From the NCBI GenBank assembly GCA_016748015.1, contig JAAOMT010000446.1:187752-251751 (forward strand): a DNA stretch of 64,000 bases, given 5' to 3'. This document shows positions 21,653 to 56,538 of this stretch, in pieces. The position numbers and the translations under genes were made by a program. The notes beneath the pieces are model-generated. The model was not told where the DNA came from and searched no databases. It saw nothing but the letters and a program-made list of their open reading frames with translations. The stretch is from Geosiphon pyriformis uo1 (lineage: Eukaryota > Fungi > Glomeromycota). Within the stretch, counting starts at the first letter, position 1, and each line of letters starts with the position of its first letter.

Positions 21653-22635
21653 TGTTACTAATGGTTTTTGGTCTCTTTTTTTAAATGTTGTTAATGTTGA
21701 TTTGTTGTGAATTCATGTTTCCAGAAAGTAGTTAGACCTCCAGTAACTGAATTTATCTTCAAATTATCTTCTATAATTTAAACTTGCTGGGCTTATAAGT
21801 GGAATAGCCAATTTTGTGCCAGTTGCTTTATGTAGTTATATTGTAGTAAACGTTAACTCTTTTCTAGGAATTGCTCATCTGGAAGCTCACTAAAAATATG
21901 TAGTTACTTTGCTGTGAAAGTCAACTCTTCTACAGGAATCTCGTCTGTAGGCTACCCTAATGATTGTAATAAGAAAAAAAAAGAAAAATAAAAGAAATAT
22001 AAAAGAAATAGGATTTTATCAAGAGAAACGTTTTTCTATTCAGGCCTGGAGTCACTAACAGTTTACTGAAATTGGTAGCTAATTAATTTCGAAATGTTAG
22101 TTGGGTTTTTGGAGGTTTTTCCAAGTACAATAATTAAAGAATTTGGTTTTTCGAATTATTTGATATTTATTTCTTTTTGTGTATATAGGAATAGTTTTAA
22201 GAGATAAATCTAAAGTAAGATATATTTTCTTGAAGAGAAATGCTCTTCTTTTATATAACTTGTTATAACACTATTCTATGAACTTGAACTTTGCTATTTT
22301 CTACAATTTCGCTGAACTAAAGATACATTTCGGTGAACTACAAGTTATTTCTGTGAATTATTAGATATTTCGGTGAACTATCAATTATTTTGGCGAATTT
22401 CTACAAATTTTGGCAAACTTTTGAATGTTACATAGTTCGGAGTATTGCATGATTTGATTATCGCAATTAGGTTACATTTGTGTTGTGTACAAATTGGGTT
22501 ATTAATTAAATGATAATTTCGGACATTTTGCTAATGTAATAAGTGATAATTTGAAACAATAATATATGCTAATTAATGATAGGATTTATAAGATAATTTC
22601 ATGCTAAATAATATCTCTAATTTTGTCTGGTAATA
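21653..22635 (-). repeat. 3' LTR of A1
   Basis: TGTTAC...GTAATA (ex-GTAACA); adjacent PPT (minus strand AAAGAGGAGGTTA). Shares diagnostic variants (AACTTGCTGG, GATTTGAT) with 40402-41374. Confidence 0.93.
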
Positions 22636-23323
22636 TAACCTCCTCTTTAAGACTGAGCTCCATCAAAGTCCAAGTACTGTCTGTAATTTTCAGATAATAA
22701 TCCAAAATTATTGAAGAAATTTGGTCTGAAAATTGTTGAAATTTCAGTTTTGTGAGCTTTCCAATGTATTGAATCTTTAAAGACTGTAAAATTGGGTTTT
22801 GTAGGACATTTTCACAGGTGTAGAATAGATCATAAAGTCTAAGAGCAGCTCTGAGCTTGTAGCGACTGTTTATTGGTCTAGCTGTTGTCTTGAATTCATT
22901 GTGGAGTTGTTTCTGAATAGCTTCTTTTGTGAAGTTTGCTGTTGTAAGTTCCAGTTTCTGTTCGTAGAGTGTTTTTCCAATGTGGAAATATTTATAGATT
23001 AGAGGATATTCAGTGTTTTTCTCATTGAAACACAGTTGAAATCTTTGTTGAATTGTAGCATTTGGTGGAATACTAATCAGAGTGAGCATTAGGTTTTCTC
23101 TTAAAGCAAGCTTTAAAAGTTTTGGCAGGTGAATTCCAGAATAATTTCTTGTGTTTTTCTTATATGAGTGATATTTTCGTAAATTTGGGGCTAAATTTGT
23201 AACTACTTTTGTTTGGGTATAATTAATGTGGTTTCCAGTAACAGTAATGGATAATTCGGGTATTGTTTTTAAAGCTAACATTAGTTTTTGGGATAATTGT
23301 TGAATGTTTTGAGGAATAGTCAT
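22604..23323 (-). CDS. A1 ORF3, 239 aa accessory protein of unknown function (env position)
   Basis: Intact ATG-initiated ORF after integrase that ends inside the 3' LTR; near-identical copy in A2. Confidence 0.8.
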   Translation of the reverse strand: MTIPQNIQQLSQKLMLALKTIPELSITVTGNHINYTQTKVVTNLAPNLRKYHSYKKNTRNYSGIHLPKLLKLALRENLMLTLISIPPNATIQQRFQLCFNEKNTEYPLIYKYFHIGKTLYEQKLELTTANFTKEAIQKQLHNEFKTTARPINSRYKLRAALRLYDLFYTCENVLQNPILQSLKIQYIGKLTKLKFQQFSDQISSIILDYYLKITDSTWTLMELSLKEEVILPDKIRDII

Positions 23324-23428
23324 TATAAGAGATTTAAAATAAAAGAAAATTATTTTTGGTGTATGGGTTTTTATGTTATTTTTGTTTTGATTGTTTCTAA
23401 ATTATAAGGGAATAACTAGTAAAATTAA

Positions 23429-24814
23429 TTAAGTGTTCAGATTGGAAGATTGTTCAATGACAACTATTGGTTCTAAGTTTCAGGAAATATCTTCGAAATT
23501 GACTAAAAGGGAATGTATATCAATTTGTGGAATTAATAGTTCAGAATTGTTTCTGGAATGATAGTGTTTCAAACAATCTCCATGTGCAACTTTTGCTAGG
23601 ATTTTGTCATCAAATCTTAGCTTGTATGATCCGTTGCTTAGAACTTCATGGATAAAGAATGGTCCATTCCATTTATTTTCAAATTTTCCACTCCATTGTT
23701 TTTTAGCTTTAGTTCTATGTAAGAGAACTTTGTTTCTGATTTTAAATTCATTGGTGACTGAAGGCAATTTGTTATCATGCCATTCTTTTTGTCAAGCTTG
23801 GGAGTGTTCAATATGGATGGCTGCTATTCGTTGTTTTTCTTTCAATGTGCTTAGCAAAGTGTAGGCTCTTTACTGAAGCATTTCTTGGAAATTGTTTTCA
23901 TTAATTGGTTGTGTTGGGTATGTTTCCACTGTGAAACTAATTGGTAATGTTGCTGTCCTTCCATAAGTTAAATCAAATAGTATGTGTTTTGTGGTATCTT
24001 GTTTTAGTGTTCTGTATGCTAGCAACACTAATGAAATAAAGATATCCCACTCTTGCTTAAAATTGGTTGAGACTTTGGCTAATAACTCACACAATGTTCT
24101 GTTAAAATGTTCTACAAGTCCATTTGTTTGTGGATGGTAGGGCGAAGACAGAGGTCTTTTGACATTGAATTGTTCCCAAATTTTTTGTATCAGGTTGTTC
24201 ACAAAGTGTGTTCCCTGATCAGATAAAAGTTCAATTGGACATCTATGTCTACAAATGATGTTTTTATAGATGAAATTTGCTATTGATTTTGCATCTGCTC
24301 ATTGAATGGCTCTGGCTTTGGGCCATTTAGTAAGATAGTCTAAAGCTACTGCAATATAATGGTTTCCTTGAGTAGTAATAGATAGTGGTTCAACTAAATC
24401 AATACCAACTCAGTCAAAGAGTTGTTCAACTTTGATTGGATTTAATGGTTCAGTAGGGCATGTTCCTTTTCTTCTTTGACAACTATCACAAAATTCAACA
24501 TATTCATGAATGTCTTTCCTCATTCGAGGCCAAAAGTAGTATTCTAGTGTTTTTTGGGTGGTGCTATTTTTTCCGAAGTGTGCTAATGAAGAATCTGAGT
24601 GTATGTTGTATAATATGGTCTCTTTTTTCTGTTTTTGTATTAATCTGAGTGGTTTGTTTGGGTTTTTGAAATTTCGATGATAAATAATGTTATTGTGTAG
24701 AAAATATTGTTTGGCTTATTGTTGTAGTCAATGTTTTTCATCTGGAGACCAATCTGTTGGGATTGTTAATGTTTCCAAATATTGTTTAAGATTATTGTAG
24801 TTTTCCAAATTCAT
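23429..24814 (-). pseudogene. A1 integrase, separate ORF, disrupted
   Basis: Own ATG (MNLENYNNLKQYL), HHCC zinc domain, GIDLV / SDQG / GLVEHFNRT DDE core, GPF motif; several stops. Confidence 0.9.
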
Positions 24815-24865
24815 TGTTTGTTGGTTGTTTTAATTGGTTAAGTTGAGTGTTGGTTTTTGTGTTTT

Positions 24866-27168
24866 CTAATCTTGTCTTATTCTGGAGAGACAGTCAACAT
24901 TGGTGTAGAGTTTTCCTGGTTTGTGATGTACTATGTATCAATAGTTTGCTAAAAATCCTGTCTATTGGGTTTGTTTTGCATTCAGCTGAGTATTTTTATT
25001 CTGAAGCCATTTGAGTCCAATATTATTAGTAATAATATCAAATTCTTTAGGCCTGAGATAAAAGTTGAAGTGGTGTAGAGCCCAAATTACAGCTGCTGTT
25101 TCTAGTTTTGTGGCAGAATAATTTTTCTCAGCTGGTTTTAATGTTTTGCTGGCATAAGCGATTACTCGCTCATTTCCATTGTCATCTAATTGTGATAGGA
25201 TAGCACCAAAGGCAGTATAAGAGGCATCTGTTGCTAATCGGAATTGGTTGCTGAAATTTGGGTAGGCGAGAATTGGAGCTGTTGTCAGTTTTTCCTTGAG
25301 AATTTCAAAAGCTTTTTGGTGTTTGGTAGTCTATTTGTATTCAACATTTTTGGTGGTGAACTGGTTGAGAAGTTTTGCAATTTTCGAAAATTCTTTGATA
25401 AACTTCTGATAGTAAAATGCTAATCCTATAAATCCTCTTAGTTCTGTAGTGTTTCGAGGAGTTTTGAAGTTTTTGACAACGCTAATTTTTCCAGGGTCTG
25501 GTTTGATTCCATCTTTACTACCGATATGTCCAAGGAAAGCCAAACTTGTTTTTCCAAAGTAGCATTTTTTGATGTTAAGTTTTAGTTCTGCTTTTTGTAA
25601 TCATTGAAAAACTTCTCACAGGTGTTTTAAGTGTAATTCGAACAATAGAAAATAAACATCAGTATTGTCAAAATAAATGACTACTGACTTCCAAAGAAGT
25701 CCTTGGTACACAATATCTATTAATCTCTGAAACATTGCTGGTGCATTGCATAATCCGAAAGGCATTATATTGAACTCGTAATTTCTGCCTTGGATGGTGA
25801 ATGCTGTCTTGGGGTGATCTTTGGGATCCATAGCAACTTGCCAGTAACCGCTTTCTAAATCTAGTGTTGAAAAGTATTTGAATTTTTCAAGGGCATCTAA
25901 CATGTCATCAATCTGGGAAAGGGAGTAGGCATCTCCAATTGTAACACTGTTGAGTTGTTGATAGTCAACACAAAATTGGATCTTTCCATTTTTCTTTTTA
26001 ACTAGCACTACAGGTGAAGCCCAAGGACTCATGGAGGGTTGGATGAGCCTATTGTTAAGCATTCATTGTACTTCTTCTCAGATGAATTGGTGGCTTTCTG
26101 GAGCAACTCAATATGCTTGTTGTCTTCTTGGTTTGGCATCTCCTGTATAAATTTGATGTTGAACCAAATTGGTTCTTCCTAAGTCATTGTTGTTTTCAGC
26201 AATGATATTGGCAAATTCTGCAATTAGCTCTTTGAGCTGGGTCTGTTGTTGTGGTTCAAGTTGTCCCATGTTGATTTGAAATAGTTTTTCCATAACAACA
26301 TGGTAGTTTTTGGAGCTGGGGTTTGGATTGATTTTTGATAGTGAATGTCCAATAATTTCAGAGAAATCGGGGACTGTTTGGGGTAATTTTTGTTGAAATA
26401 TATTACTGTGAATAACTCCAATTTCTAAATTATTTAATAAAATTATGGGGTAATTATTGGGGTTGTAAAAAGTAACTCGGATTTTCTTTGTTCCTTCTGG
26501 AATATAAATGTTTAGGATTGAAATATTATGTTCCAAGCAGACTTGTTCATTGGATTCAAAAATTTGTTGTGTGGTTGTTGGCTTTGGGCAGATGTAGATT
26601 TCCGGATGTTCTCCAAAGAGTGAGATGATAATTGGTTGTGGAAGTCTAAGAATCTGGTGGGATTCATTCTGTGTTTTAAGAGCTATATTAACTGGAACTG
26701 TGAATCATCCAGTTGAACCAAAACCTTGGGTTCCTCTATCACTTTTTCCTAATTGTTGTCTTTAATTGACTAGTTGTAAACCCGAAATGTTGATTAGGGG
26801 TAGGTAAATAGCTTGGGCAATTTTTTCAGCATGTTCAATCTTGAATGGTTTGTCAGTTTCATTTTGAAGCATCACTGTAATGTCTCCAGTATATCCAGCA
26901 TTGATTATTCCTCTTCTGACATTGATTTCTTTGCTTGCCAGAGAGGACCAGGAGGTGATTTGAACCATTGCTTCTAGCAGGATTTCGAGTGCAATTTTGA
27001 GGTTGATTTTTGTAAGAGATTTGGGTTTGAGAACAAGAGTATCCTTGTCTGAATATCTTAGATCATATCCAGCATCAATTTTGTGTGCTTTTTCGGGTTT
27101 TATTTCTTGTTTGTTGTTGTTGAAGTATTTAAGTTGTAAGACAGGCTGATTTTTGATAAGGTAGATGA
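24866..27168 (-). pseudogene. A1 polyprotein 3' part: dUTPase, dUTPase-like domain, RT, RNase H
   Basis: AGYDL...GIINAGYTG...IAQ...RGTQGFGSTG; SPWASPVVLVKKK, LDLESGYWQV, MPFGLCNAPA, YFDN (ex-YxDD); LATDAS RNase H; ends SRIRQD* (TAG 24868-24866). Confidence 0.92.
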
Positions 27169-28157
27169 TGTTACCGGAGGTTTTTGGTTTCTTTTCTGTA
27201 ATGTTGTTGATACTTATTTGCTGTGAATTCACGTTTTTAGGAAGTAGTTGAACCTCTAATAACTGAATTTATCTTCAAATTATCTCCTATAATTTGAACT
27301 GCTGGACTTATAAGTGGAATGGCCAATTCCGTGCCAGTTGCTTTATGTAATTTGTAGTTACATTGTAGTAAATATCAACTCTTTCCCAGGAATTGCTTGT
27401 CTGGAAGCTCACTAAAAATGTGTAGTTACTTTGCTGTGAAAGTCAACTCTTCTACAGGAATCTTGTCTGTAGGCTACCTTAATGATTGTAATAAAAAAAA
27501 AAAAGAAAAATAAAAGAAGTGTAAAAGAAATAGGATTTTATCAAGGGAAACGTTTTCTATCTAGGCCTGAAGTCACTAACAGTTTACTGAAATTGGTAGC
27601 TAATCAATTTCAAAATGTTAGTTGGGTTTTGAGGATTTTTCTAAGTGCAATAATTTAAAAAATTTGGTTTTTCGAATTATTTGATATTTATTTCTTTTTG
27701 TGTATATAAGAACGGTTTTGAGAGATAAATCTAAAGTAAGATACATTTTCTCGAAGAGAGAAGCTCTTCTTTTATACAATTTGTCATAACACTATTCTAT
27801 GAACTTGAACTTTGCTATTTTCTACAATTTTGCTGAACTAAAGATACATTTTAGCAAACTACAAGTTATTTCTATGAACTATTAGATATTTCAGTGAACT
27901 ATCAATTATTTCGGCAAATTTCTATAAATTTCGGCAAACTTTTGAATGTTACATAGTTTGGGGTTTTGCATGATTGATTATCACAATTAGGTTACATTTG
28001 TGTTGTGTACAATTTGGGTTATTAATTAAATGATAATTTCAGACATTCTTTGCTAATGTAATAAGTGATAATTTAAAACAATAATATATGCTAATTAATG
28101 ATAAGAATTATGAGATAGTTTTATGCTAAATAATATCTCTAATTTCGTCTGGTAACA
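27169..28157 (-). repeat. 3' LTR of A2
   Basis: TGTTAC...GTAACA termini with the PPT adjacent. Confidence 0.95.
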
Positions 28158-28854
28158 TAACCTCCTCCTCAAGACTGAGCTCCGTCAAAGTCCAAGTACT
28201 GTCTGTTATTTCCAGATAATAATCCAAAATTATTGAAGAAATTTGGTCTGAAAATTGTTGAAATTTCAGTTCTGTGAGCTTTTCAATGTATTGAATCTTC
28301 AAAGGTTGAAAAATTGGGTTTTGTAGTACAATTTTACAGGTGTGAAATAGGTGATAAAGTCTAAGAGCAGCTCTAAGCCTGTAGCGACTGTTTGTTGATC
28401 CAGCTGTTGTCTTGAATTTGTTGTGGAGTTGTTTCTGAATAGCTTCTTTTGTGAGGTTTGCTGTTATAAGTTCCAGTTTTTGTTCATAGAGTGTTTTTCC
28501 AATGTGAAAATATCTATAGATTGGAGGATATTCGGTGTTTTCCTCATTGAGACACAGTTGAAGTTTTTGTTGAATTGTAGCATTTAGTGGAATACTAATC
28601 GGAGTGAGCATTAGGTTTTCTTTTAAAGCAAGCTTTAAAAGTTTTGGCAGGTAAATTCCAGAATAACTTCTTGTGTTCTTCTTATATGAGTGATATTTTC
28701 GTGAATTTGGGGCTAAATTTGTAACTACTTTTGTTTGGGTATAATTAATGTGGTTTCCAGTAACAGTAATGGATAATTCGGGTATTGTTTTTAAAGCTAA
28801 CATTAGTTTTTGGGATAATTGTTGAATGTTTTGAGGAATAGTCATTATAAGCAA
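28126..28854 (-). CDS. A2 ORF3 accessory protein, unknown function
   Basis: Open frame of about 240 aa (MTIPQNIQQLSQKL...RAALRLYHLF...EEEVMLPDEIRDII) overlapping the PPT and LTR. Confidence 0.8.
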   Translation of the reverse strand: MLIMTIPQNIQQLSQKLMLALKTIPELSITVTGNHINYTQTKVVTNLAPNSRKYHSYKKNTRSYSGIYLPKLLKLALKENLMLTPISIPLNATIQQKLQLCLNEENTEYPPIYRYFHIGKTLYEQKLELITANLTKEAIQKQLHNKFKTTAGSTNSRYRLRAALRLYHLFHTCKIVLQNPIFQPLKIQYIEKLTELKFQQFSDQISSIILDYYLEITDSTWTLTELSLEEEVMLPDEIRDII

Positions 28855-28961
28855 TTGAAAAAATAAAAAATTATTTTTGGTGTATGGGTTTTTATGTTAT
28901 TTTTTGTTTTGTTTTTGTGAGATTGTTTCTAAATTATAAGAGAATAACTAGTAAAATTAAA

Positions 28962-30347
28962 TTAAGTGTTCAGTTTAGAAAGTTGTTCAATAACAACTAT
29001 TGGTTCTAAGTTTCGGGGAATATCTTTAGGACTAACCAAAGGAGAATGTGTACCAATTTGTGGAATTAGTGGTTCAGGATTGTTTCTGGAATAATAGTGT
29101 TTCAAACGATCTCCATGTGCAACTTTTGCTAGAATTTTGTCATCAAGTCTTAGCTTGTATGATCCGTTGCCTAGAACTTCATGGATAAAAAATGGTCCAT
29201 CCCATTTATTTTCAAATTTTCCACTCCATTGTTTTTCAGCTTTAGTTCTGTGTAAGAGAACTTTGTTTCCAATTTTGAATTTATTGGTGACTGAAGGCAA
29301 TTTGTTATCATGCCATTCTTTTTGTTGAGCTTGGGAGTGTTCAATATGGGTGGCTGCTATTCGTCATTTTCCTTCTAATGTGCTAAGCAGAGTGTAGGCT
29401 CTTCCTTGAAGCATTTCTTAGAAATTGTTTTCATCAATTGGTTGTGCTGGGTATGTTTCTACTGTGAAACTAATTGGTAACGTTGCCGTCATTCCATAAG
29501 TTAAATCAAATGATGTGTGTTTCGTGGTATCTTGTTTTAATGTCCTATATGCTAGTAACACTAATGGAATAAAGAGATCCCATTCTTGCTCAAAATCGGT
29601 TAAAACTTTAGCTAATGACTCACACAATGTTCTGTTAAAACGTTCCACAAATCCGTTTGTTTGTGGATGGTAGGGCGAAGACAGAGGTCTTTTGACATTA
29701 AATCATTCACAAATTTCTTGTATCAGGTTGTTCACAAAGTGTGTTCCCTGATTGGATAAAAGTTTAATTGGACATCCATGTCTACAAATGATGTCTTCGT
29801 AGATGAAATTTGCTACTGATTTTGCATCTGCTCGTTGAATGGCTCTGGCTTCAGGCCATTTAGTAAGATAGTCTACAGCTACTGCAATATAACGGTTTCC
29901 TTGAGTGGTGATAGATAATGGTCTGACTAAATCGATACCAACTCTGTCAAAAGGCTGTCCAACTTTGATTGGGTTTAAAGATTCTGTAGGGCAAGTTTCT
30001 CCTTTTCTTTGACAACTATCACAAAATTCGACATATTTGTGAATGTCTTTTCTCATTTGAGGCCAAAAGTAGTATTCTAGTGTTCTTTGGGTGGTGCTAT
30101 CTTTTCTGAAGTGTGCTGATGAAGGATCTGAGTGCATATTGTATAAAATGGTCTCTTTTTCCTGTTTTTGTATTAATCTGAGTGGTTTGGTTGGGTTTTT
30201 GAAATTTCGATGATAGATAATGTTGTTGTGTAGAAAATATTGTTTGGCTTGTTGTTGTAACCAATGGTTTTTATCTGGAGACCAATCTGTTGAAATTGTT
30301 AATGTCTCCAAATATTGTTTGAGATTGTTGTAGTTTTCAGGGTTCAT
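28962..30347 (-). pseudogene. A2 integrase, separate ORF, disrupted
   Basis: MNPENYNNLKQYLETL...MHSDPSSAH...CDSC...GIDLV...SNQG (ex-SDQG)...ERFNRT...WDGPF; no chromodomain. Confidence 0.92.
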
Positions 30348-30399
30348 TGTTTGTTGTTTTGATGCTGTTAATTCAAATGGGTGTTGATTTTTTTTTTTT

Positions 30400-33300
30400 C
30401 TAATCTTGCCTCATTCTTGAGAAACAATCAACGTTGGTGTGGAGTTTTTCTGGTTTGTGGTATACGATATATTAGTAATTAGCTAAAAATCCTGTTCATC
30501 AAGTTTGTTTTGTGTTTAGCTAGATGTTTTTGTTTTGAAGCCATTTAAGTTCAATATTATCAGTGATAATATCGAATTCTTTGGGTCTGAGGTAAAGATT
30601 GAAGTAATGTAGGGCCCAAATTACTGCTGCAGTTTCTAATTTTGTTGCGAGATAGTTCTTTTTGGCTGGCTTTAATGTTCTACTAGCATAAGCAATTACT
30701 CGCTCATTTCCATTGTCATCTAACTGTGATAGGATGGCACTAAAGGCAGTATAAAAAGCATCAGTTGCTAACTGGAATCGGTTGTTGAAGTCTGGATAGG
30801 CGAGGATTGGAGCTGTTGTGAGTTTTTTCTTAAGTATCTCGAAGGCATTTTGGTGTTCTTTTGTCCATTTGTATTCGACATTTTTAGTAGTGAGCTGGTT
30901 AAGGAGTTTTGCAATTTCTGAGAATCCTTTGATGAATTTTTGGTTATAGGATGCTAATCCAATAAATCTTCTTAATTCTGTGATATTTCATGGAGTTTTG
31001 AAGTTTTTGATAATACTAATTTTTCCGGGGTCTGGTTTAATTCCATCTTTGTTAACAATGTGACCAAAAAAAGCTAAACTTGTTTTTCCGAAGTAGTATT
31101 TTTCAATGTTCAGTTTCAATCCTGCTTTCCGTAATTGTTGAAAAACTTCTCGCAGGTAAATTAAATATAGCTCGAAAGATGGTGAATAAACATCAGTGTT
31201 ATTAAGATAAACTACTACTGATTTCCAAAGGAGACCTTTGTAAACAACATCCATAAGTCTTTGGAATGTTGCTGGTGCATTGCATAATCCAAAAGGCATT
31301 ACATTGAACTCGTAATTTCCTCCTTAAGTAGTGAATGCTGTTTTGGAGTGGTCTTTGGGATCCATAGCAACTTGCCAGTATTCACTCTTTAAATCTAATG
31401 TTGAAAAGTATTTGAACTTTCCAAGAGCATCCAACATGTCATCAATTCGGGGAAGAGGGTAGGCATCCCCAATGGTGACAATGTTGAGTTGTCAGTAATC
31501 AACACAAAATCATATCTTTCCATTTTTCTTTTTAACTAAGACCACAGGTAAGGCCCATGAGCTCATTGATGGTTGAATAAGCCCATTGTTAAGCATCCAT
31601 TGTACTTCTTCTCAGATAAATTGGTGACTTTCTGGGGCGACTCGGTAGGCTTGTTGTCGCCTTGGTTTGGCATCTCCTGTATAGATTTGGTGTTGAACCA
31701 AATCAGTTCTTTCTAAGTCATTGTTGTTTTCGGCGAAGATGTCAGCAAATTCTGCAATTAGCTCTTTGAGCTGGGTCTGTTGTTGTGGTTCAAGTTGTTC
31801 TATGTTGATTCGAGATAGTTTTTCCATGACAACATGGTAGTTTTCAGAGCTAGGGTTTGGGTTGATTTTTGGTAGTGAATGTCTAATAATTTTAGGGAAA
31901 TCGGGGACTGTTTGGGGTAATTCTTGTTGAAATATATTACTGTGAATAATTCCAATTTCTAAATTATTTAATAAAATTATGGGGTAATTATTGGGGTTGT
32001 AAAAAGTAACTCGGACTTTCTTTGTTCCCTCTGGAATATAAATGTTTGGGATCAAAATATTATGTTCCAAGCAGACTTGTTCATTAGACTCAAAAATTTG
32101 TTGTGTGGTTGTTGGCTTTGGACAAATGTAGATTTCCGGATGTTCTCCAAAGAGTGAGATGATAATTGGTTGTGAAAGTCTGAGAATCTGGTGAAATTCG
32201 TTCTGTGTGTTAAGAGCTATATTAACTAGAACTGTGAATTGTCCAGTTGAACCAAAACCTTGGGTTCCTCTATCACTTTTTCCTAATTGTTCTCTTTAAT
32301 TGACTAGTTGCAAACCCGAAATGTTGATTAAGAGTAGGTAAATAGCTTGGGCAATTTTTTCAGCATGTTCGATCTTGAATGGTTTGTCAGTTTCATTTTG
32401 AAGCATCACTGTTATGTCTTCAGTATATCCAGCATCAATTATTCCTTCTCTGACATTGATTCCTTTGCTTGCCAGAGAGGACCGGGAGGCAATTTGAATC
32501 ATTGCTCCTGGCGGGATTTCGAGTGCAATTTTGAGATTGATTTTTGTAAGAGATTTGGGTTTGAGAACAAAAGTATCCTTGCCTGGATATCTTAGGTCAT
32601 ATCCAGCATCAATTTTGTGTGCTTTTTTGGGTTTTATTCCTTGTCCGTTGTTGTTAAAGTATTTAAGTTGTAAGACAGGCTAATTTTCAATAAGGTAGAT
32701 GAATGTTGTTTTAATTTCTTTCATTTCTTCAGGTTCTCCAAATTCAATTTCATTCTCATCATTTTTGCTGGGCAAGGAGATACTAAGAGCATAGCATTCA
32801 GGACACCATTGTTTATCACAAGGCATAATGCATTCTTCACATAGCCTAATGTTCATTTGCTCTAATCATTGAATTTGAGCTTTTTGGGTCGGGTAGGTGT
32901 GACTTGCAATTTGGTGGTAAACTTCTACTTCATCTTCGTAATTGAATCCAGCTAATTCTATAGTGTATTGAATGTATTCTGCTTCCTTCATTTGACAAAC
33001 ATCTTCTTTGGTAGCTCTATTAATTAGTGCCATTGCTAAGTCGAAAATCATCTCGGCATCATAAGGGTAGTGATAAAGTTTGTTGAGAGCACTGTTGTAT
33101 GCTGCATTAAAGGGTGTTCCTCTTTTTACTTTTTCTGAAATTGATAAAGCATATTGGCAGGTCTGATTGCAGACGCCTCCTCTCATTGCTACATCAATCT
33201 AATTGTATTCTTCCGGTAGCATATCTCCACAAGTCAAACAAGGGGTGTTGTCCCATTTTCCATTCTTTTTTATTAGATGGCCCCATTGTTCTCTGTGGCA

Positions 33301-36011
33301 AACCTTGCAGTAATAACAAGTATGATTCTTATATTCTTTTTAGGTGAAATGCAGGCTTCCATTGACGATAGTTTCTTGTGGCAGTCCTTACATTTAAGAG
33401 GAATATAGGGGCATTGTTTTCTTGGTTTGGGTTTTGAGTAAGGTATATTCCATTCAGAGATTTCAGGTTTAGTGTGTGGGGTAAAATGTTCTTGTTCTGT
33501 TTCATCAGCCCAGTTGGACGTTGATCCAAGAGCCATGAATGTTTCGATTATTGGTTTTTCTTCTTCTGGTTCAAATTCAAAAGCTAGGGCTTTTTCAGAG
33601 TGTTTGTTGAATATACCACAAATGGCAGATACCTGGGCGTGTTATCCTTGGTAGGAGATTGTTAACTCTTGTGTTTCCCAATTCAGATTAGCATTGGCTT
33701 TTTGAAGCCAATCATTTCCGACAAGAGCTTGGTATTGGGATGCGTCCATTACAAGAACTTTGACTGGAATGGTAATTCCATCAATAGTGAATGGAAAATT
33801 GTCAATTTCTCCTACTAGTGTCTTTTTCATGCCATCAGCAGTGACAATTACTGTTTGAGCTGGTCAGTCAACATTTCTTTTCAACTGTTGCATTAACTGG
33901 TAGGTAATAATGCTTCTGGTGGATCCACTGTCTAGGATCAAGTGAATTGGCTTTCTTTTTACTTCAGCTTCTGTGTATATTGCAGTGATGGCTTTTTGCT
34001 TATTAGCTGCTGCATTGCTAAGCAAGAATGGTGATTCATTTGCTTCAAATTCAAAAGGAAAGATATCAGAAAGATTGGCGTTTTCAGCAATTCAGGCTGG
34101 TGGAATAGTGATGTGGTTATGAGAAGGGTTTCATTGTTGTTGTGCTACAGCTCTATCTTCCGGGAGTACAATATGGTGAAAATCCTGTTCTTCTGGCATT
34201 GTTAAATAACTGGGTTGAGTGTGGTAGTGGTTGGGTCTTGGTTGAGTGGTATTTTGAGGAACCAATTGGTTGTTCGAACTGATTCTACTGTTGTTTACTT
34301 GGTATCAGTTTTGTGGTGTAAATTGATTTTGTGTAATCAGTCTTCAAGCAGGTACTTGATAATGTTATGTGGATGGTTGTTGGTATTGCTGTTGGATTGG
34401 TTGTGGGGCGGGCTGATAATAGTTATTTTGGTATTAGGGTCTTGGTAAATAGTAAGCTGGTGGTGATGGTTGATAATAAGATTGCTGTGGTGGAGAGTAA
34501 CATTGATTACCCCTATTTTGTTGGTCTCGTTGCAGCTTTCTGCAATCTCTTTTCCAGTGGTCAGAGATTCTACAGTAATGGCAATTCTGGGACTGGTTAT
34601 TGAAAAGTGGTGCAAAGTTATTTTGATTTCGTCTTTGGAGTGGTTGATATTTTTGGGGTTGTTGTTGTTGTTGGTTGGTAAAATAGTTTTTGACCTTCTT
34701 TGTGAGTTGGTCAATTTTTTCTTCGGCTGCTGAGCTGGTTTCTCCAATTGCCAAATTTACAAGTTTTGTACAATTGGCTTCTTCCATGGCCATTTTGTAT
34801 CTTTTTGCATGCTGTATGACAGAGTTTAAATCTTCTGGTGTGTGTGGGCGAACTTTTTTAATTAGTTTATCTTTTAGACCAGCAATAAATTAATCCAAAA
34901 TTTGAGCATCGGAATAATAATTGTTTGTCTCGAGTTGGCAAATCCGTCTAAGAAGTTTGTTGAATTTCCCAATATAAGTCATAACGAATTCGGAGGGTTC
35001 TTGTTTGATATTTCGAAAACAATTGTGAAAAGTGATGGAGGTATTATTGTCGGTGAACTGTTCAAGGAAGGCTGCTTTGAAAGCATTCTAATCATTGAAT
35101 GGGGCAGCAAGGTTTTCAAACCATTCTTCTGCTGTTCCTTTGAGAAAGTAGGGAATTGTTCTTAACATTCTGGCAGCATTCTATTTATTTGCATCTCCAG
35201 CTTTAATAACTTGGTCAAGTCATTCTTGGGGACTGGTCTCAATATCTTTTCCATTGAATTCAAGAATTTTTGCAATGTATGTTGTCATTTCGTCTTCTTC
35301 ATTTTTACTGTCTATTGATTCTTCTTCAGTTATTTCAGAGTTGTTTTCTTCATTTGCTGCTGTCTCAGAGTGTTCACTTTGATTTTCAGCTAGAAAATCA
35401 AGAAGATTGGAACTAGTTTGAAGGGGTTTTTGTTGTCTGGTGGGACTTCTGAGTGATGTAAAATCTTCTGGTCTTGCAAATCAATTCAAGGGTGAATTAG
35501 GTGTTTGTGCTTGTGCAAGTGAAGCTGGAAAAGGTGTGATAGTAAGTAAAAGTTTTGAGCTGGTTCCTTGTTCAGGTGTTTGTAGATGTTTGAATAATAT
35601 TTTGGAAGTATTGGGTGTTGTGTGAACAGGTCAGTTATCTTTTTGTCTTTTGTTGCTACTGGTTTCAGGTTCAGATTCGAGTTCAAAGACAAATTGTGCG
35701 TTTGCAGGATATTTTTCTTCGCAAAATCAAATAATATTATAATCGAGTTCCTCAAAATAAGTAGCGCAAGCTTCAGCACTAATGTTTTCTGATTCAGTGT
35801 TAGAATAGTGTAGTATGTTCTCAAGAAAATCTCTTTTAACTATTGTAATGTTATAGTTCCCAAAGAGGTAGTTATTGATTTGATTTTCAATATATTGAAA
35901 AAGTGTTTTCTTGAAAGCTATAATTTCATCGCGTATTTCAAATTGTTGTTTGCAGTGTGTGTAAATTGATTGATAGTACTCTAAGATTGTGATGTCTGAG
36001 GCGGTTGCCAC
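30400..36011 (-). pseudogene. A2 polyprotein: N-extension, Gag (CCHC), protease, Cys-rich domain, dUTPase, dUTPase-like domain, RT, RNase H
   Basis: Capsid SPQE.LDQV..IPYFLKGTA, CHYCRISDHWKRDC knuckle, LILDSGS protease, dUTPase motifs 1-5, RT YLNN (ex-YLDD), RNase H ending SRMRQD*. Confidence 0.92.
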
Positions 36012-36053
36012 TTTGAATTTGTTGTTGTGTTATTTCTGTAAGAGAGCACCAAA

Positions 36054-37036
36054 TGTTATCAGAAGTTTTTGGGTCTCTTTTCTGTAATGTTGTTGATACT
36101 TATTTGCTGTGAATTCACGTTTTCAGGAAGTAGTTGAACCTCCAATAACTGAATTTATCTTCAAATTATCTCCTATAATTTGAACTGCTGGGCTTATAAG
36201 TGGAATGGCCAATTCCGTGCCAGTTGCTTTATGTAGTTACGTTGTAGTAAACGTCAACTCTTTCCCAAGAATTGCTCGTCTGGAAGCTCACTAAAAATGT
36301 GTAGTTACTTTGCTGTGAAAGTCAACTCTTCTACAGGAATCTTGTTTGTAGGCTACCCTAATGATTGTAATAAGAAAAAAAAAGAAAAATAAAAGAAGTG
36401 TAAAAGAAATAAGATTTTATCAAGGGAAACGTTTTCTATCCAGGCCTGGAGTCTCTAACAGTTTACTGAAATTGGTAGCTAATCAATTTCAAAACATTAG
36501 TTGGGTTTTGAGAATTTTTCCAAGTGCAATAATTTAAAGAATTTGGTTTTTCGAATTATTTGATATTTATTTTTTTTTGTGTGTATAAAAATGGTTTTAA
36601 GAGATAAATCTAAAGTAAGATACATTTTCTCGAAGAGAGAAGCTCTTCTTTTATACAACTTGTCATAACACTATTCTATGAACTTGAACTTTGCTATTTT
36701 CTACAATTTCGCTGAACTAAAGATACATTTCGGCGAACTACAAGTTATTTCTGCGAACTATTAGATATTTCAGTGAACTATCAATTATTTCAGCAAATTT
36801 CTATAAATTTCGGCGAACTTTTGAATCTTACATAGTTTGGGGTTTTGCATGATTGATCATCATAATTAAGTTACATTTGTGTTGTGTACAAACTGGGTTA
36901 TTAATTAAATGATAATTTTGGACATTCTTTGTTAATGTAATAAGTAATAATTTGAAACAATAATATATGCTAATTAATGATAGGAATTATGAAATAGTTT
37001 CATGCTAAATAATATCTCTAATTTTGTCTGGTAACA
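36054..37036 (-). repeat. 5' LTR of A2
   Basis: TGTTAT...GTAACA; the PBS follows on the minus strand; TATAAAAG box near 36650. Confidence 0.95.
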
Positions 37037-40000
37037 ATGGATGTTGTTTCAATTTCTTCCGTTGCTTTAAGTTCTCCAAATTCAATTTCATTCTCATCAT
37101 TTTCGCTGGGCAAGGGGATATTAAGAGCGTAGTATTCAGGACATCACTGTTCATTACAAAGCATAATGCATTCTTCACATAGCCTAATGTTCATTTGCTC
37201 TAATCGTTGAATTTGAGCTTCTTGGGTTGAGTAGGTGTGACTTACAATTTGGTAGTAGATTTCTACTTTGTCTTCATAATCAAATCCAGCTAATTCCATT
37301 GTGTATTCATATATTCTGCTTCCTTCATTTAATGAACATCTTCTTTGGTAGCTTTATTAATTAATGCCATTGCTAGGTCAAAAATCATCTTGGCATCATG
37401 GAGGTAGTGATAAAGTTTGTTGAGTGCACTGTTGTATACTGCATTAAAGGGTGTTCCTCTTTTTACTTTTTCTGAAATTGATAAAGCATATTGGCAGGTC
37501 TGATTACAGACTCTTCCTCTCATAGCTACATCAATCCAATAGCATTCTTCCGGTAGCATATCTCCACAAGTCAAACAAGGAATGTTGTCCTATTTTCCAC
37601 TTTTTTTTATTAGATGGCCCCATTGTTCTCTGTGGCAAGTCTTGCAGTAATAACAAGTATGATTTTCATATTCTTCTTCAGGTGAAATGCAGGCTCCCAT
37701 TGATGATAGTTTCTTGTAACAGTCTTTACATTTAAGGGGAATATAGGGGTGTTGTTTCTTTGGTTCAGGTTTTGAGTAAGGGATATTTTATCCAGAGGTT
37801 TCGGATTCAGAATGTGGGGTAAAATGTTCTTGTTCTGTTTTATCGGCCCAGTTAGACATTGATCTAAGAGCCATGAATGTTTCAATAAGGGGTTTTTCCT
37901 CTTCCAGTTCGAATTCAAAAGCCAGGGCTTTTTCAGAGCATTTGTTGAATATACCACAAGTGGCAGATACCCGGACGTGTTGTCTTTGGTAGAAGATTGT
38001 TAACTCTTGTGTTTTCCAATTCAGATTAGCATTGGCTTTTTGAAGCCAATCATTTCTGACGAGAGCTTGGTACTGAGGTGTGTTCATTACAAGAACTTTG
38101 ACTGGAATGGTGATTCTGTCAAGAGTAAACAAAAAATTGTCAATTTCTCTTACTGGGGTCTTTTTCATGCCATCGGCAGTGACGATTACTGTTTGAGCTG
38201 GTCGGTCAACATTTCTCTTTAATTGTTGCATTAACTAATAGGTGATAATGCTTCCAGCAGATCCACTGTCTAGGATCAAGCAAATTGTCTTTCCTTCGAC
38301 TTCTGCTTCAGTGTACATAGCCATGATTGCTTTTTGTTTATTGGTGGCTGCATTGCTAAGCAGGAATGGTGACTCATTTGCTTTGAACTCAAAAAAGAAT
38401 ATATCTGAAAGGTTAGCATTTTTAGCGATTCTGGCTGGTAAGATTGTGGTGAGAGTATAGGAAGGGTTTTGTTGTTGTGCTGCAGTTCTATCTTCTGAGG
38501 GTACAATATGGTAAAAATCCTGTTCTTTTGGCATTGTTAAATAACTGGGTTGAGTATGGTAGTGGTTGGGTCTTGGTTGAGTGGTATTTTGAGGAATCAA
38601 TTGGTTGTTCAAACTGATTCTACTGTTGTTTACTTGGTATCAGTTTTGTGGTGTAAATTGATTTTGTGTAATCAGTCTTCAAGCAGGTACTTGATAATGT
38701 TGTGTGGGTGGTTGTTGGTATTGCTGTTGGATTGATTGTGGGGCGGGCTGATAATAGTTATTTTGGTATTGGGGTCTTGGTAAATAGTAAGCTGGTGGTG
38801 ATGGTTGATAATAAGATTGCTGTGGTGGAGAGTAACATTGATTACCCCTATTTTGTTGGTCTCGTTGCAGCTTTCTACAATCTCTTTTTCAGTGGCCAGA
38901 GATTCCACAGTAATGGCAATTCTGGGACTGGTTATTGGAAAGTGGTGCAAAGTTATTTTGATTTCGTCTTTGGGGTGGTTGATATCTTTGGGGTTGTTGT
39001 TGTTGTTGGTTGGTAAAATAGTTTTCGACCTTCTTTGTAAGTTGGTCAATTTTTTCCTCGGCTGCTGAACTGGTTTCTCCAATTGCCAAATTTACAAGTT
39101 TTGTACAATTGGCTTCTTCCATGGCCATTTTGTATCTTTTCGCATGCTGTATGGCCGAGTTTAAATCTTCTGGTGCGTGTGGGCAAACCTTTTTAATTAG
39201 TTTATCTTTTAGACCAGCAATAAATTGATCCAAAATTTGAGCATCAGAATAATAATTGTTTGTTTCGAGTTGGCAAATCCGTCTGAGAAGTTTGTTGAAT
39301 TTCCCAATATAAGTCATAACAGATTCGGAGGGTTCTTGTTTGATATTTCGAAAACGATTGTGAAAAGTGATGGAGGTATTATTGTCAGTGAACTGTTCAA
39401 GGAAGGCTGCTTTGAAAGCATTCCAATCATTAAATGGGGCAGCAAGGTTTTCAAACCATTTTCCTGCTGTTCCTTTGAGAAAGTAGGGAATTGTTTTTAA
39501 CATTCTGGCAGCATTCCATCCATTTGCATCTCCAGCTTTAGTAACTTGGTCAAGCCATTCTTGGGGACTGGTTTCAATGTCTTTTCCATTAAATTCAGAA
39601 ATTTTTGCGATGTATGTTGTCATTTCGTCTTCGTCATTTTCATTGTCTATTGATTCTTCTTCAGATATTTCAGGTTCGTTTTCTTTGTTTGCTGCTGTCT
39701 CAGAGTGTTCACTTTGATTTTCAGCTAAAAAGTCAAGGAGATTGGAACTAGTTTGAAGAGGTTCTTGTTGTCTGATGGGACTTCTAAGTGATGTAAAATC
39801 TTCTGGCCTTGCCAATCAATTCAAAGGTAAATTAGGCATTTGTGCTTGTGCAAGTAAAGCTGAAAAAGGTGTGATAGTAAGTGGAAGTTTTGAACTGGTT
39901 TCTTGTTCAGGTGTTTGTAAATTGTTGGCAGTTGTTTTTGGTGTCTTTGGAGTATTTGGGGTAATATTTGAGTGTTGTTTCAGTTTTTGTTTGCCTTTGT

Positions 40001-40400
40001 TGCTTGTTTCTGTTTCTGATTCAAAGTCAATAGATTATTTAGACTGCACTGGATATGTTTTTTCACAGTATTTGATAATGTTAAAATTAAGTTCGTGAAA
40101 GTAAGTAGCAAGTGTTTCGCTGTTAAGGTCTTCAGTTCCCAACTGTAAATAATGTGCTAGATTATTGTAAAGGTTGCTTTTGACTTCTGAGATATTGTAA
40201 TTTTCAAAAAGATAATTGTTGATGCAGTTTTCAATGTATTGGTATACTGATTTCTTGACAACTTCAATTCCGTCTGGAATGTTGAATCTTTGCTTGCAGT
40301 GGGTATAAATTGATTGGTAATACTCTAGAGTTGATGTGTCTGATGTGGTTGCCACTTTGAATTTTGTTGTTGCTGTGTTATTTCCATGGGAGAGCACCAA
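37037..40400 (-). pseudogene. A1 polyprotein 5' part: N-extension, Gag, protease, Cys-rich domain
   Basis: ORF fragments 40035-40400, 38889-39815, 38235-38612, 37788-38231 and 37329-37574 are all in one frame, separated only by stops. CHYCGISGH*KRDC; LILDSGSAGSII. Confidence 0.92.
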
Positions 40401-40401
40401 A
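40389..40401 (-). promoter_or_regulatory. Primer binding site of A1 (also at about 36041-36053 in A2)
   Basis: TTTGGTGCTCTC directly after the LTR-terminal CA, complementary to a tRNA 3' end ...GAGAGCACCA. tRNA identity not determined. Confidence 0.85.
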
Positions 40402-41374
40402 TGTTACCAGTGGTTTTTGGTCTCTTTTTTTAAATGTTATTAATGTTGATTTGTTGTGAATTCACATTTCCAGGAAATAGTTGAACCTCCAGTAACTGAA
40501 TTTATCTTCAAATTATCTCCTATAATTTGAACTTGCTGGGCTTATGAGTAGAATGGCCAATTCCGTGCCAGTTGTTTTATATAGTTACATTGTAGTAAAT
40601 GTCAACTCTTTCCCAGGAATTGCTTGTCTAGAAGCTCACTAAAAATGTGTAGTTACTTTGCTGTGAAAGTCAACTCTTCTACAGGAATCTTGTCTGTAGG
40701 CTACCCTAATGATTGTAATAAGAAAAGAAAAGAAAAATAAAAAAAATAGAATTTTATCAAGGAAAACGTTTTTCTATTCAAGCTTGGAGTCACTAACAGT
40801 TTACTGAAATTGGTAGCTAATCAATTTCGAAATGTAAGTTGGATTTTTGGGGGTTTTTCTAAGTACAATAATTAAAGAATTTGGTTTTTCGAATTATTTG
40901 ATATTTATTTCTTTTTGTGTGTATAGGAATGGTTTTAAGAGATAAATCTAAAGTAAGATACATTTTCTTGAAGAGAGATGCTCTTCTTTTATACAACTTG
41001 TCGTAACACTATTCTATGAACTTGAACTTTGCTATTTTCTATAATTTTACTGAACTAAAGATACATTTCGGCAAATTACAAGTTATTTTTGCAAACTATT
41101 AGATATTTTAATAAACTATCAATTATTTTGGCGAATTTCTACAAATTTTGGCAAACTTTTGAATGTTACATAGTTCGGGGTATTGCATGATTTGATCATC
41201 ACAATTAGGTTACATTTGTGTTGTGTACAAATTGGGTTATTAATTAAATGATAAATTTCGGACATTTTGCTAATGTAATAAGTAATAATTTGAAATAATA
41301 ATATATGCTAATTAATGATAGGATTTATAAGATAATTTTATGCTAAATAATATCTCTAATTTCGTCTGATAACA
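40402..41374 (-). repeat. 5' LTR of A1
   Basis: TGTTAC...ATAACA; pairs with 21653-22635. Confidence 0.93.
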
Positions 41375-53879: not shown

Positions 53880-56538
53880 TTTATTAATTCCTTTAGAGAA
53901 ATTTTAGAATTCTGGAATTCTGTAATTCTGTAATTTTAAGTAAAAAATTCTGGTATTCTGGAATTTTAGAATTCTGTAATTTCTTTAGAAAAATTTTGGA
54001 ATTTTTTTGTTATTACACCTACTTCTAATTGGCTATTTATCTAATTATAATACTTCTAATTTCTATAAGTAATATTATTCCTTTTTTTTAATATTGAGCT
54101 CTGTTAAAATTTTCTAAACTTTCTAGATTTCCTTTTTGAATTAGCTCTATAATTTCTTTCTCCAGAATTGTTTTTGTAATTCTTATCTACAATTCTTTAA
54201 ATTAAGCATTGGTTAATTTTTCCAATTGATTAATAGTTATAGTATCTATTGTTAAATGTAGTAATATTTCTGATCTGTTTCAAAATTTTATCCATAATCA
54301 GTAAATAGCTCTTGCATATGTGAATAATTGTTTTTTCTGACAAGTTATTTAATTTTTTGTAGTCAAATTAGATCAAATTTTTTTTTTGTTTTGTCAGTAT
54401 ATAAGTTTTTGATACTTAACTGTTGTTCCAATTGATAGTAACAAAAGTTTTTTGGATTTTGTTGTATCTATTAGTTCTAATTTTTTAAGATCAATTTTTT
54501 TTTTGGTATTGATATTCTTAGATCTTTCAATATCTTTTCTATCTTTCTTATTATTTTATCTACAGTATTCTTAGAAGTGTGATATCTGAAATATCACTTT
54601 TTGGTTTAATTTTTTTGCATTATTTCTTTGTTTTTGTATTGTATTATGTGTTTATTGATAGTAACTTTTAGGCTTGATTTCTGTTATTAAATTAGTTGTA
54701 ATAGTTGTTGTACAAGTAAGTAGATATTATCAATAATTTTTATTTTTTTTTGTTGTTTTTGTCACATGTATTGGTTTTTTATATACTATTCTGGTAGCTT
54801 AATTTGACATGTTTGCTTTAATAATAATGATTGGTTTTAGATCTTATAGAATTTTATCTGGTTTGATTAATATTTTTTGTATTTCTAGTTGTGGAATATT
54901 ATTGATGAATAATAATACTAAATTGTGATATGATTTTAGTTGATCTCTATATGCTGCTTTAACTAAGATTTTTTTGTCTCATTTTAGTTTATAAGCTTCA
55001 TTTTTTAGAATTTTTTCAATGTAAAATATTTTGTCTCATTTGGGATCGAATTTTTTATTCTATTGTTTTTCTGCTTTGGTACAATATAAAAGTACTTTGT
55101 TTTCAATCTTAAATTTAACTGGTTTATTTGGTAATTGGTTATCATGTTATTCTTTTTGTTTTTATTGTAACTTTTGAATATTATCAGCTGTTTTTTATTT
55201 TTTATTTTCCAAAATTTCTATTAATTTGTATGTTTTTTTCAATAATGTTCTTTGGAAGTTGGTTTCTGTTATTGGTTCAGTTGGATATGTGTTAATATTT
55301 ATATCAACTAATAATATTGCTGTTCTATTATAAACAAGTTCAAATAGTATTGCTTATATGGTATCTTGCTTCATTGTTCAATAAGCAAATAGTACTGATA
55401 ATATAAAAAAATTTTATTCATTTTGGTTTTCTTGGCTGATTTTGGTTATTACTTTGCACAATGTTTTATTGAACTTTTTAACTAAGTCATTTGTTTATGG
55501 ATGATATAGTAATAATAATGGTCTTTTAATTCTAAATTTTTAACTTAATTTTGTTAATGTTCTGTTCACAAAGTAAGCTCTTTGTTTTAATAATAATTTT
55601 TTTATATATTTGTGTTGACAAATTAAATTTTGGTGAATAAATTCGGCTATAAATTTTGCATCTGCTTTTTGGATTGCTTTTATTTCTGGCCATTTTGTAA
55701 AATAGTCCATAGCTATTGCTATATAACAATTGTCTTTGCTGATTATCATTAATAATCTGACTAAGTTAATTTTAATTTAATCAAATAGTTGTTCTACTTT
55801 AATTGGTTTTAGTGGTTCACTGGGTTTTATTCCTTTTTTTTTTTGATTAGCATTACAATTTTGCACATATTAAATGATGTTTAAATACATAGATGACCAA
55901 TAGTATCTTTTTTTGGTTCTTTTCATATTTGCTTCTTTATGAAAATATTTTGCTGTTAAATTTAAGTGCATATTAAATAGTATTGTTTTTTTTTTGGTTC
56001 TGTAATTATTCTGAGTGGCTAATTTAGATATTTTTTGTTTTTTTAGTATAATATATTTTGATAAATAATAAAATATTTTGCTTATTGTTTTATGTTGTTT
56101 TGTTTTTTTTGAGATAATTTTTTCTTAAACTATTAAGTATTAATAAAATGTTGGAATTGTTGATATTTTTATGTGTTTATTTTTTGTTATATTTTTGGGT
56201 TAAAATGTTCTTAGATTTGTTTTATTCATAATAAACTGTTAATATTTCTATTTTTTTTTCTTTTTTATAATGTACTGTATAATTGAATGATGATAATTTT
56301 ATTTTTCTGCATGACAGTCATCTCCAAATTCTTGTTTTTGAATTAATGTCAATCTTTTGTAATCAGTATACACATCAAATTTTTGTCTCAAATATTCTTT
56401 TTATTTAATAACAGCTTAATAAATAGCCAAATATTTTAGTGCTAAAGTTTTATAGTTTTTTTCAGCTGGACTTAAGTTTTGGCTGGCATATGCTACTGGA
56501 TGTTTTCTTTTATTTGGCTCTCTTTGTAACAATACTGC
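53880..56538 (-). mobile_element. Old Ty3/Gypsy family C 3' part (RNase H end, integrase, ORF3, PPT, LTR edge at about 54074)
   Basis: HPVAYASQNLSPAEKNY; AIAMDYFTKWPEIKAI; ORF3 relic YYQLEQQL...TINQLEKLTN; PPT TTATTCCTTTT on plus. Cut at 56539 by the family B LTR; left boundary unresolved. Confidence 0.75.

Follow-up and report, generated by a model that had tools for sequence, protein, structure and literature searches.

A 64,000-nucleotide stretch of a Geosiphon pyriformis contig (JAAOMT010000446.1; hereafter the window) contains a Ty3/Gypsy long terminal repeat (LTR) retrotransposon, copy A of family A, whose integrase (IN) has an open reading frame (ORF) and an ATG of its own; a further frame, ORF3, lies downstream. 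We consider it a real and apparently undescribed variant of Ty3/Gypsy whose defining traits are a free integrase and, in most cases, an ORF3. The original prediction for this DNA had proposed a tricistronic layout, with a long Gag-Pol frame rich in accessory modules, IN and ORF3 as its cistrons. The separate IN and ORF3 frames were found in copy A, in a further family A copy termed A', and in family B, and partly by eye in family C, but the list of accessory modules proved overstated.

A separate integrase frame and the clade that carries it

In A, A' and B a stop codon lies directly after the RNase H (RH) domain and the integrase has a separate ATG. In the heavily decayed family C the same stop and a 30-nt spacer were recognised by eye, and the IN start codon reads ATA. 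The RH-IN spacer measures 52 nt in A, 51 nt in A', 31 nt in B and 30 nt in C, and A' carries a second in-frame stop. Since the RH stop is common to A, A', B and (by eye) C, whereas almost all internal stops arose by transitions and the frame-breaking indels are private to single copies, we conclude from the sequence comparison that the RH stop is not a product of decay and that the integrase split is genuine.

Relatives were collected by searches seeded with the window sequences, and the resulting trees hold no named GyDB references and no Copia or BEL rows. The search with reverse transcriptase (RT) and RH, limited to proteins of 631-2011 aa, returned many metagenome and Rhizophagus proteins without an integrase domain. 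The RT-RH tree drew on 120 proteins, 84 loci and the 3 window copies; once multi-RT models and fragments had been dropped, 116 rows with a single complete RT-RH remained. The tree revealed an 83-row RT clade including the window copies (Shimodaira-Hasegawa (SH) support 99), which branches among rows of fused Gypsy-type and errantivirus-like elements, the outgroup being badnavirus-like; the clade was retained in a 48-row IQ-TREE run (SH-like approximate likelihood ratio test (SH-aLRT) 98). The integrase is absent from the RT frame in 79 of the 83 clade rows versus 7 of the 33 rows outside, where the other 26 are fused. Within the clade, 68 rows (three of them the window's own) end no more than 40 residues past RH, at least one of these, P0218, being merely cut short; 11 have a non-integrase tail and four are fused. 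Intact relatives mostly end 1-21 residues past the RH motif.

Among the best 120 homologs from the integrase search (limited to 401-1278 aa), 119 stand alone, at 401-464 aa, and 82 have a Met exactly 5 residues before YxxLxxYL, as in the window; this Met position is conserved across 45-55% identity. Metagenome loci were drawn from 6 of the 64 parts of the collection. The RH end could be scored by script in 15 of the 32 closest loci and is split in all 15, and the 48 more distant loci comprise 24 fused, 9 split (8 without the conserved Met) and 15 uninformative cases. Named members belong to five Glomeromycota genera, Geosiphon, Paraglomus, Entrophospora, Rhizophagus and Cetraspora. A related ORF was found past IN in 11 of the 15 clade loci with at least 490 nt beyond IN; 10 of these built the profile, and the remaining one, L013, matched it independently (E=1e-18). 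Judged from these sequences, what defines the clade is its free integrase and, as a looser trait, ORF3. The predicted old, diversified clade with a multi-cistronic layout is thus borne out by the two support values, the five genera and the separate IN and ORF3 in metagenome loci.

Two findings count against the explanation favoured below. P0212 is truly fused and lies inside the clade or at its base (in the 48-row run, at an unresolved basal fork), and ORF3 is missing in 4 of the 15 loci, two of which pass straight from IN to the polypurine tract (PPT), so that it is not required in cis. The other three fused clade rows are Rhizophagus clarus RH-IN gene models. Because these lack the last RNase H motif, and because the raw DNA of their sister L013 shows an overlapping stop and start, the joins look like prediction artefacts.

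The heavy mutation of the window copies and the four clade rows annotated as fused would also fit an RH-IN fusion made by readthrough or frameshifting, or a split that reflects only decay or annotation. Against this stand the ends of the intact relatives, the conserved IN Met, the second in-frame stop of A' and the spacer phase; spacers fall in all three phases and those of A and A' differ by 1 nt, so that one recoding event is unlikely. We regard this explanation as largely refuted and highly improbable.

The rows with a tail (L010, L020, P0185, P0192, P0199, P0200, P0220, P0231, P0233, P0235 and P0238) form a subclade in which 75-585 aa follow RNase H; several have a Cys/His-rich motif there, and IN is still separate wherever DNA was seen. 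At L021:3-2433 a clade-type IN follows two non-RT ORFs and is succeeded directly by PPT and LTR, possibly representing an IN-only non-autonomous element. One clade integrase (PYY19639.1, in the cluster of P0390) is filed under an Acidobacteria metagenome-assembled genome and is likely misbinned fungal DNA. Scans of IMG/VR found no clade member.

Expression of the integrase and of Gag

Eighteen RH-IN junctions were compared, 15 scored by script and 3 by hand. Stop and start overlap in 3, 11 have spacers of 5-163 nt, and 4 have spacers of 278-727 nt. The 11 short spacers contain 1 ATG versus 8.3 expected (p=0.0015), and the IN ATG is accompanied by G at +4 in 14 of 18 loci and by A at -3 in 11 of 18. 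Our preferred reading, to which we give roughly even chances, is that the integrase is translated from the genomic RNA by ribosomes restarting past the polyprotein stop. ORF1 would be read from a weak GUG as one Gag-protease (PR)-RT-RH frame of about 1,870 codons ending after RNase H, and leaky scanning to the capsid AUG would likely give a shorter second form. Ribosomes would restart past the RH stop at the IN ATG, setting the integrase dose independently of RT, and the free integrase would have to bind RNA, Gag or RT to get to the cDNA, or else join it once reverse transcription is over. ORF3 would be made from a spliced or restarted message.

Several points weigh against restart. Efficient restart after an ORF of 1,870 codons normally needs a dedicated cis signal or factor, and neither was identified in this analysis. 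Since GTA is as depleted as ATG in the short spacers (0 versus 8), the ATG deficit is not specific, and subgenomic RNA predicts such a deficit too. In the four long spacers ATGs occur at chance (30 versus 31), and start and stop are no more than 18 nt apart in only 4 of the 18 loci and in none of the four window junctions.

Integrase and ORF3 could instead be translated from subgenomic RNAs that arise by splicing from the 5' leader or by initiation at an internal promoter, the route taken by complex retroviruses for accessory genes and by foamy viruses for Pol. The long ATG-containing spacers in 4 of 18 loci, the candidate splice acceptor before ORF3 in A and A', and the RH-IN joins in the three R. 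clarus models would agree with this, and the ORF3s of rotifer LTR elements are described as typically spliced units (PMC5408684). However, the R. clarus joins look like artefacts, just 6 of the 18 loci have a YAG within the last 40 nt before the IN ATG, G is missing altogether from the spacers of A' and B, and overlapping stop/start pairs are not predicted by this route, which we hold to be possible but doubtful.

Each cistron had also been described as preceded by a CAA/AAC-rich leader. Compared with same-size windows of the element, the gag leader is in the top 1.3% for CAA/AAC and the IN leader in the top 6.7%, but the whole ORF3 spacer is not enriched (35%), its 51-nt core reaching the top 6.3%; in relatives the composition varies, with A+C in the 30 nt upstream of the IN ATG ranging from 0.30 to 0.83. 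A+C content places the gag leader, IN leader and ORF3 core in the top 0.3-2.4%, with minimum free energies of 0 to -4 kcal/mol, and on these sequences the leaders are better called G-poor, A/C-rich and unstructured. All three window leaders being G-poor and nearly unstructured, such spacers might serve as internal ribosome entry sites or enhancers independent of upstream translation; yet the composition is not kept in relatives and three loci have no spacer at all, and we consider this improbable.

An AUG-less extension of gag had also been predicted. As predicted, the 241 extension codons of A contain no in-frame Met versus 3.9 expected (p=0.02), but A' has one in-frame Met; the likely GTG start is kept in both copies. 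Among 425 contigs of DNA run X1, which spans the whole element and may be the source sample, no variant with a share of at least 2% was found at 36008-36024 and neighbouring sites vary; the GTG is also kept in two loose-end consensuses of divergent copies. Between A and A' the first part of the extension shows a proportion of synonymous differences (pS) of 0.77, which is saturated, and of nonsynonymous differences (pN) of 0.24. The extension has no Pfam match above cut-off and, in the clade rows compared, was not seen outside Geosiphon; named Rhizophagus relatives have a Met start and a different N-terminal domain. Leaky scanning from the GUG to the capsid AUG, yielding a second, shorter Gag, would be plausible but is weakly supported, since out-of-frame ATGs in the extension are not significantly low by synonymous shuffle; total ATGs are low by base shuffle (p=0.01-0.02), a modest deficit. 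The sole out-of-frame ATG common to the A and A' extensions (35285-35302, minus strand) begins a frame of 5 codons that ends in a stop overlapping the AUG of the capsid, which may be chance.

Comparison with known elements

The element shares with canonical Ty3/Gypsy elements (Metaviridae) the direct TG..CA LTRs, a 4-bp target site duplication (TSD), a primer binding site (PBS), a PPT, a Ty3-type capsid with CCHC, the PR-RT-RH-IN order and an H2C2-DDE-GPY/F integrase. Canonical Ty3/Gypsy Pol is described as one polyprotein including integrase (PMC3248453, PMC5408684), whereas the present IN has a frame and an AUG to itself and is succeeded by a conserved non-Env ORF3. A dUTPase between PR and RT is already known from fungal and rotifer elements (PMC2864245, PMC5408684, PMC6431247), and in this feature the element resembles Postia PosPlaTy3-5, Phanerochaete elements, Tuber Tmt1 and the bdelloid Juno, Vesta and TelKA. 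Compared by description, and as far as the available text goes, no separate IN is reported for these dUTPase-bearing elements, and a chromodomain is absent here. Rotifer elements also bear varied ORF3s (Env-like, GDSL or DEDDy; PMC5408684), unlike the present ORF3. The integrase differs from that of chromoviruses in having no C-terminal chromodomain, none being found when the A and B integrases were scanned with Pfam or among the domains precomputed for the 120 homologs, and ORF3 differs from the third frame of errantiviruses and retroviruses in having no Env transmembrane segments.

Ginger1 encodes a stand-alone Gypsy-type integrase of ~400 aa with YPYY, H2C2, DDE and GPY/F, and has TGT termini and a 4-bp TSD (PMC2836005). 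The integrase of the window is likewise its own protein with YPYY (by eye against the description), H2C2, DDE and GPY/F, and the element also shares the TGT termini and the 4-bp TSD. Compared by description, this integrase is unlike Ginger1 in lying within an LTR element with gag and RT, with no terminal inverted repeats and no OTU/Ulp1 tail.

Complex retroviruses and foamy viruses have a nef- or bet-like 3' ORF overlapping PPT and U3, and murine leukemia virus starts its glyco-Gag at a near-cognate codon upstream of gag. Foamy viruses and the caulimovirus transactivator (TAV) provide examples of an enzyme not fused to Gag and of polycistronic translation. The element recalls all of these in its 3' ORF over PPT and U3, its near-cognate gag start, its non-Gag-fused enzyme and its presumed polycistronic translation. 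To our knowledge, integrase stays in Pol in those retroviruses and caulimoviruses that have one. Unlike complex retroviruses the element has no Env, and comparisons of sequence and fold linked ORF3 to none of these systems. The predicted organisation like that of a complex retrovirus can be kept as an analogy only, since ORF3 lacks a transmembrane segment.

No Gypsy clade with a separate integrase ORF was found in the literature searched, which did not include Repbase, GyDB, REXdb, supplements and most subscription journals, nor in the available text of the papers cited above and of PMC5006619, PMC13465315, PMC2774666, PMC11952901 and bioRxiv 2021.03.30.436303. A far-reaching interpretation, which we think unlikely, is that an LTR lineage spanning the phylum has separated integration from Pol, its integrase being a free, trans-capable, Ginger1-like transposase dosed by restart and the clade a living link between Gypsy and Ginger, with ORF3 a new-fold accessory protein (reinitiation helper or silencing suppressor), a glyco-Gag-like GUG isoform of gag, and the whole a fungal counterpart of complex retrovirus expression.

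In usual LTR elements and retroviruses the integrase is packaged as part of Pol, and a separate integrase needs another solution for dosage and packaging; the lineage is apparently successful. LTR elements make up 41.2% of the G. pyriformis genome (PMC11952901), a figure for all LTR elements and not for this clade. Rhizophagus irregularis, a model that can be cultured, has members whose long frames are open (for example in the clusters of P0185 and P0151), which makes it possible to test how fungal ribosomes restart past a long ORF, how the integrase is recruited and where Ginger1 transposases came from. The hundreds of entries annotated in these genomes as 'hypothetical proteins' or stand-alone 'DDE integrases' are retrotransposon cistrons and not host genes, and tools expecting IN inside Pol may misannotate the clade.

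Structure of the copies, accessory modules and ORF3

The features of the window that belong to the element and its relatives are listed in Table 1. The Pfam order in A is gag/Ty3 capsid, aspartyl protease, dUTPase, RT, RNase H and H2C2-rve-SH3 integrase. The original prediction called family A complete, which holds for the full domain set in its order but not for the frames: in copy A, 28 internal stops and a single frameshift interrupt ORF1, a further 3 stops lie in IN, and the RT motif YxDD reads YLNN. Copy A is thus a decayed, dead Ty3/Gypsy element, complete in domain content only. Its LTRs are 93.8% identical, with 50 transitions and 3 transversions, and the first six letters of its PBS are common to the relatives L009, L010 and L013. 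The insertion of A broke A' at 27168/37037, in the pol region, and left a 4-bp duplication with one mismatch. As predicted, family B matches A from the protease onward and has an unrelated LTR (57380 to about 56539; no significant match to the A LTR, best E=0.03), and the visible part of C, though heavily decayed, matches in RH end, spacer, IN and ORF3. Rfam gave no match in window 21000-42000.

Table 1. Positions in the window of copy A, its parts and related copies
Feature	Position	Strand	Remark
5' LTR of copy A, TG...CA	36054..37036	-	Kimura two-parameter distance (K2P) 0.057 to 3' LTR
PBS, begins TGG, 2 nt past LTR	36034..36051	-
GTG, likely ORF1 start, A at -3, G at +4	36009..36011	-	same in A' (40355)
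N-terminal Gag extension, 241 codons: ~100-aa probably globular part, then acidic linker	35289..36011	-
Capsid with one CCHC knuckle; first in-frame AUG at 35288	34536..35288	-	Ty3_capsid E=2e-6, Retrotrans_gag E=3e-10
Aspartic protease (LDSG), in the gag frame	33654..34010	-	Pfam
Cys-rich domain, ~200 aa, several CxxC pairs flanking a helical part	32780..33400	-
dUTPase, five usual motifs	32239..32679	-	Pfam E=1e-19; PDB E=2e-14
Second domain, probably beta-rich	31936..32238	-	dN/dS 0.22
RT and RNase H; ORF1 stop TAG at 30400-30402, three codons past last RNase H motif	30400..31809	-
RH-IN spacer, 52 nt, G-poor, no ATG, unstructured	30348..30399	-
Integrase, separate ORF, own ATG: YPYY-like N-terminus, H2C2, DDE, GPY/F-SH3	28962..30347	-
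IN-ORF3 spacer, 116 nt, no ATG	28846..28961	-	candidate splice acceptor ending 28929, by eye, also in A'
ORF3, 239 aa, helical core	28126..28845	-	runs through PPT and ~30 nt into 3' LTR
PPT, 3 nt upstream of 3' LTR	28161..28170	-
3' LTR of copy A	27169..28157	-
Copy A', same family, hosting A	21653..41374	-	perfect 4-bp TSD, LTR K2P 0.078
Family B: PR (part)-Cys-rich-dUTPase-second domain-RT-RH / IN / ORF3 / own 3' LTR	56539..64000	-	runs past window edge
Family C, heavily decayed: RH end / 30-nt spacer / IN / ORF3 / PPT	54075..56538	-	B interrupts

The internal stops are nearly all transition products of CGA, CAR or TGG codons (CpG observed/expected 0.41). Only two indels between A and A' break the frame, each private to one copy and none shared, and the remaining indels that are not multiples of three lie only in the two spacers or at the insertion site. 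Because the stops are mostly transition products and the frame-breaking indels private, we infer that family A had a single Gag-PR-Cys-rich-dUTPase-second domain-RT-RH frame of about 1,870 codons. For each of the eleven modules that allowed its calculation, the ratio of nonsynonymous to synonymous substitution (dN/dS) between A and A' falls within 0.07-0.63, and at this level of comparison purifying selection is shown for every module. One stop common to A and A', TAA at 32298, corresponds to Gln in the homolog P0116. The shared TGA stops were rejected as programmed signals, the 4 TGA/TGA versus 9 TGA/CAA pairs being what CpG decay predicts. pS is 0.08-0.14 in capsid, nucleocapsid, dUTPase, second domain and ORF3 and 0.5-0.77 in RT, RH and the N-terminal extension, a mosaic that suggests recombination between subfamilies.

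In Gag the zf-CCHC match is weak (E=0.085). The Cys-rich domain is disrupted in A by a 1-nt deletion near 33342, has a dN/dS of 0.33 between A and A', and is present in B. It has no Pfam match above cut-off and is likely zinc-binding; its C-terminal part was found in the metagenome protein P0225 (E=1.6e-10), the one relative outside Geosiphon, and a shorter CxC...CxxC motif in about 30 clade rows. One relative has a Nudix domain before the protease, and dUTPase was seen in 4 of the 80 clade rows that are not the window's own, a set with many partial rows. As for the predicted pair of dUTPase and dUTPase-like domain, the dUTPase is genuine by both Pfam and PDB, whereas the likeness of the second domain is unproven: hhalign probabilities are 2% for dUTPase and a weak 11.5% for the PR-RT spacer found in fused Gypsy elements, and the AlphaFold model of both domains has a mean predicted local distance difference test score (pLDDT) of 41, about 30 over the second domain. 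It is possibly a degenerate form of the dUTPase-like PR-RT spacer of other Gypsy elements, and was seen in Geosiphon sequences only among the clade rows compared. A sporadic occurrence of modules across copies had been named in advance as refuting the prediction, and for the accessory modules this is what was observed. The dUTPase, long Cys-rich domain and Nudix would be optional cargo of a variable PR-RT linker, and the longer module list, which had been put forward for the clade as a whole, is specific to the Geosiphon families.

ORF3 is open in both A and A', and that of B has a stop. Its homologs were found in B (E=4e-63; B's ORF3 is in that profile) and C (E=2.5e-9). Among the best 120 of 201 ORF3 homologs, 119 are G. 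pyriformis hypothetical proteins (62-91% identity), and the remaining one comes from the window itself. A profile search gave 48 representatives; of 10 looked up, 8 are from Geosiphon and 2 are metagenomic, and both of the latter likewise end in the PPT-LTR peptide. The ORF3 stop lies on or just beyond the PPT start in 6 loci, and two ORF3 profiles match each other (94% probability, E=1.2e-7). The predicted model is helical, with a pLDDT of about 90 over residues 100-200. It has no Foldseek match at E<=0.001 in PDB or BFVD (best VIA Z 4.3), and the sequence has no Pfam family and no PDB match passing on its own; this lack of matches does not establish a new or a different fold. The ESM leads DUF1016_N, closterovirus coat and RegA (0.85-0.94) received no support from Pfam, Foldseek or VIA. 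No membrane segment was found in 15 members (maximum 19-residue hydropathy 0.34-1.29; 0-4 Cys), hence ORF3 is not Env, and it is likely an intracellular regulator that binds nucleic acid or protein and is perhaps anti-silencing. After the insertion it was kept open (0 stops versus 3.05 expected, p about 0.05), a weak sign of selection.

A GG(A/T)GCT(C) motif lies ~10-15 nt upstream of the PPT in A and A' (window 28171-28185, minus strand), is decayed in B and C, and recurs at L013 ~9180-9215, L007 ~2325-2345, L014 ~2430-2450 and L019 ~1920-1940; it resembles the PBS core. The motif falls in varying reading frames and, in L013, outside coding sequence, so that a role in cis is likely. L013 also has, at 7458-8258, an extra ORF of 266 aa, coiled-coil-like, between IN and the ORF3-family gene, that is, at least one more cistron.

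Elsewhere in the window, solo LTRs related to family A (76-90% identity) lie at 45041-46009, 51245-52235 (plus strand) and 61070-62078, the last being A-type and sitting inside family B just before RT. Decayed LINE-like elements at ~46300-51200 and 20650-21650 (both plus strand) are 66% alike over 850 nt, and their translations show endonuclease-RT-RNase H by eye. Intron-split host genes were recognised by eye in 2700-13200; we take them to include a Ulp1/NEDD8-protease-like gene (~2700-3900, minus strand), a multi-pass membrane protein gene (5866-6985, minus strand), a Sel1-like gene (~9300-9800, plus strand) and a Myb/SANT-like gene (~11950-12480, minus strand).

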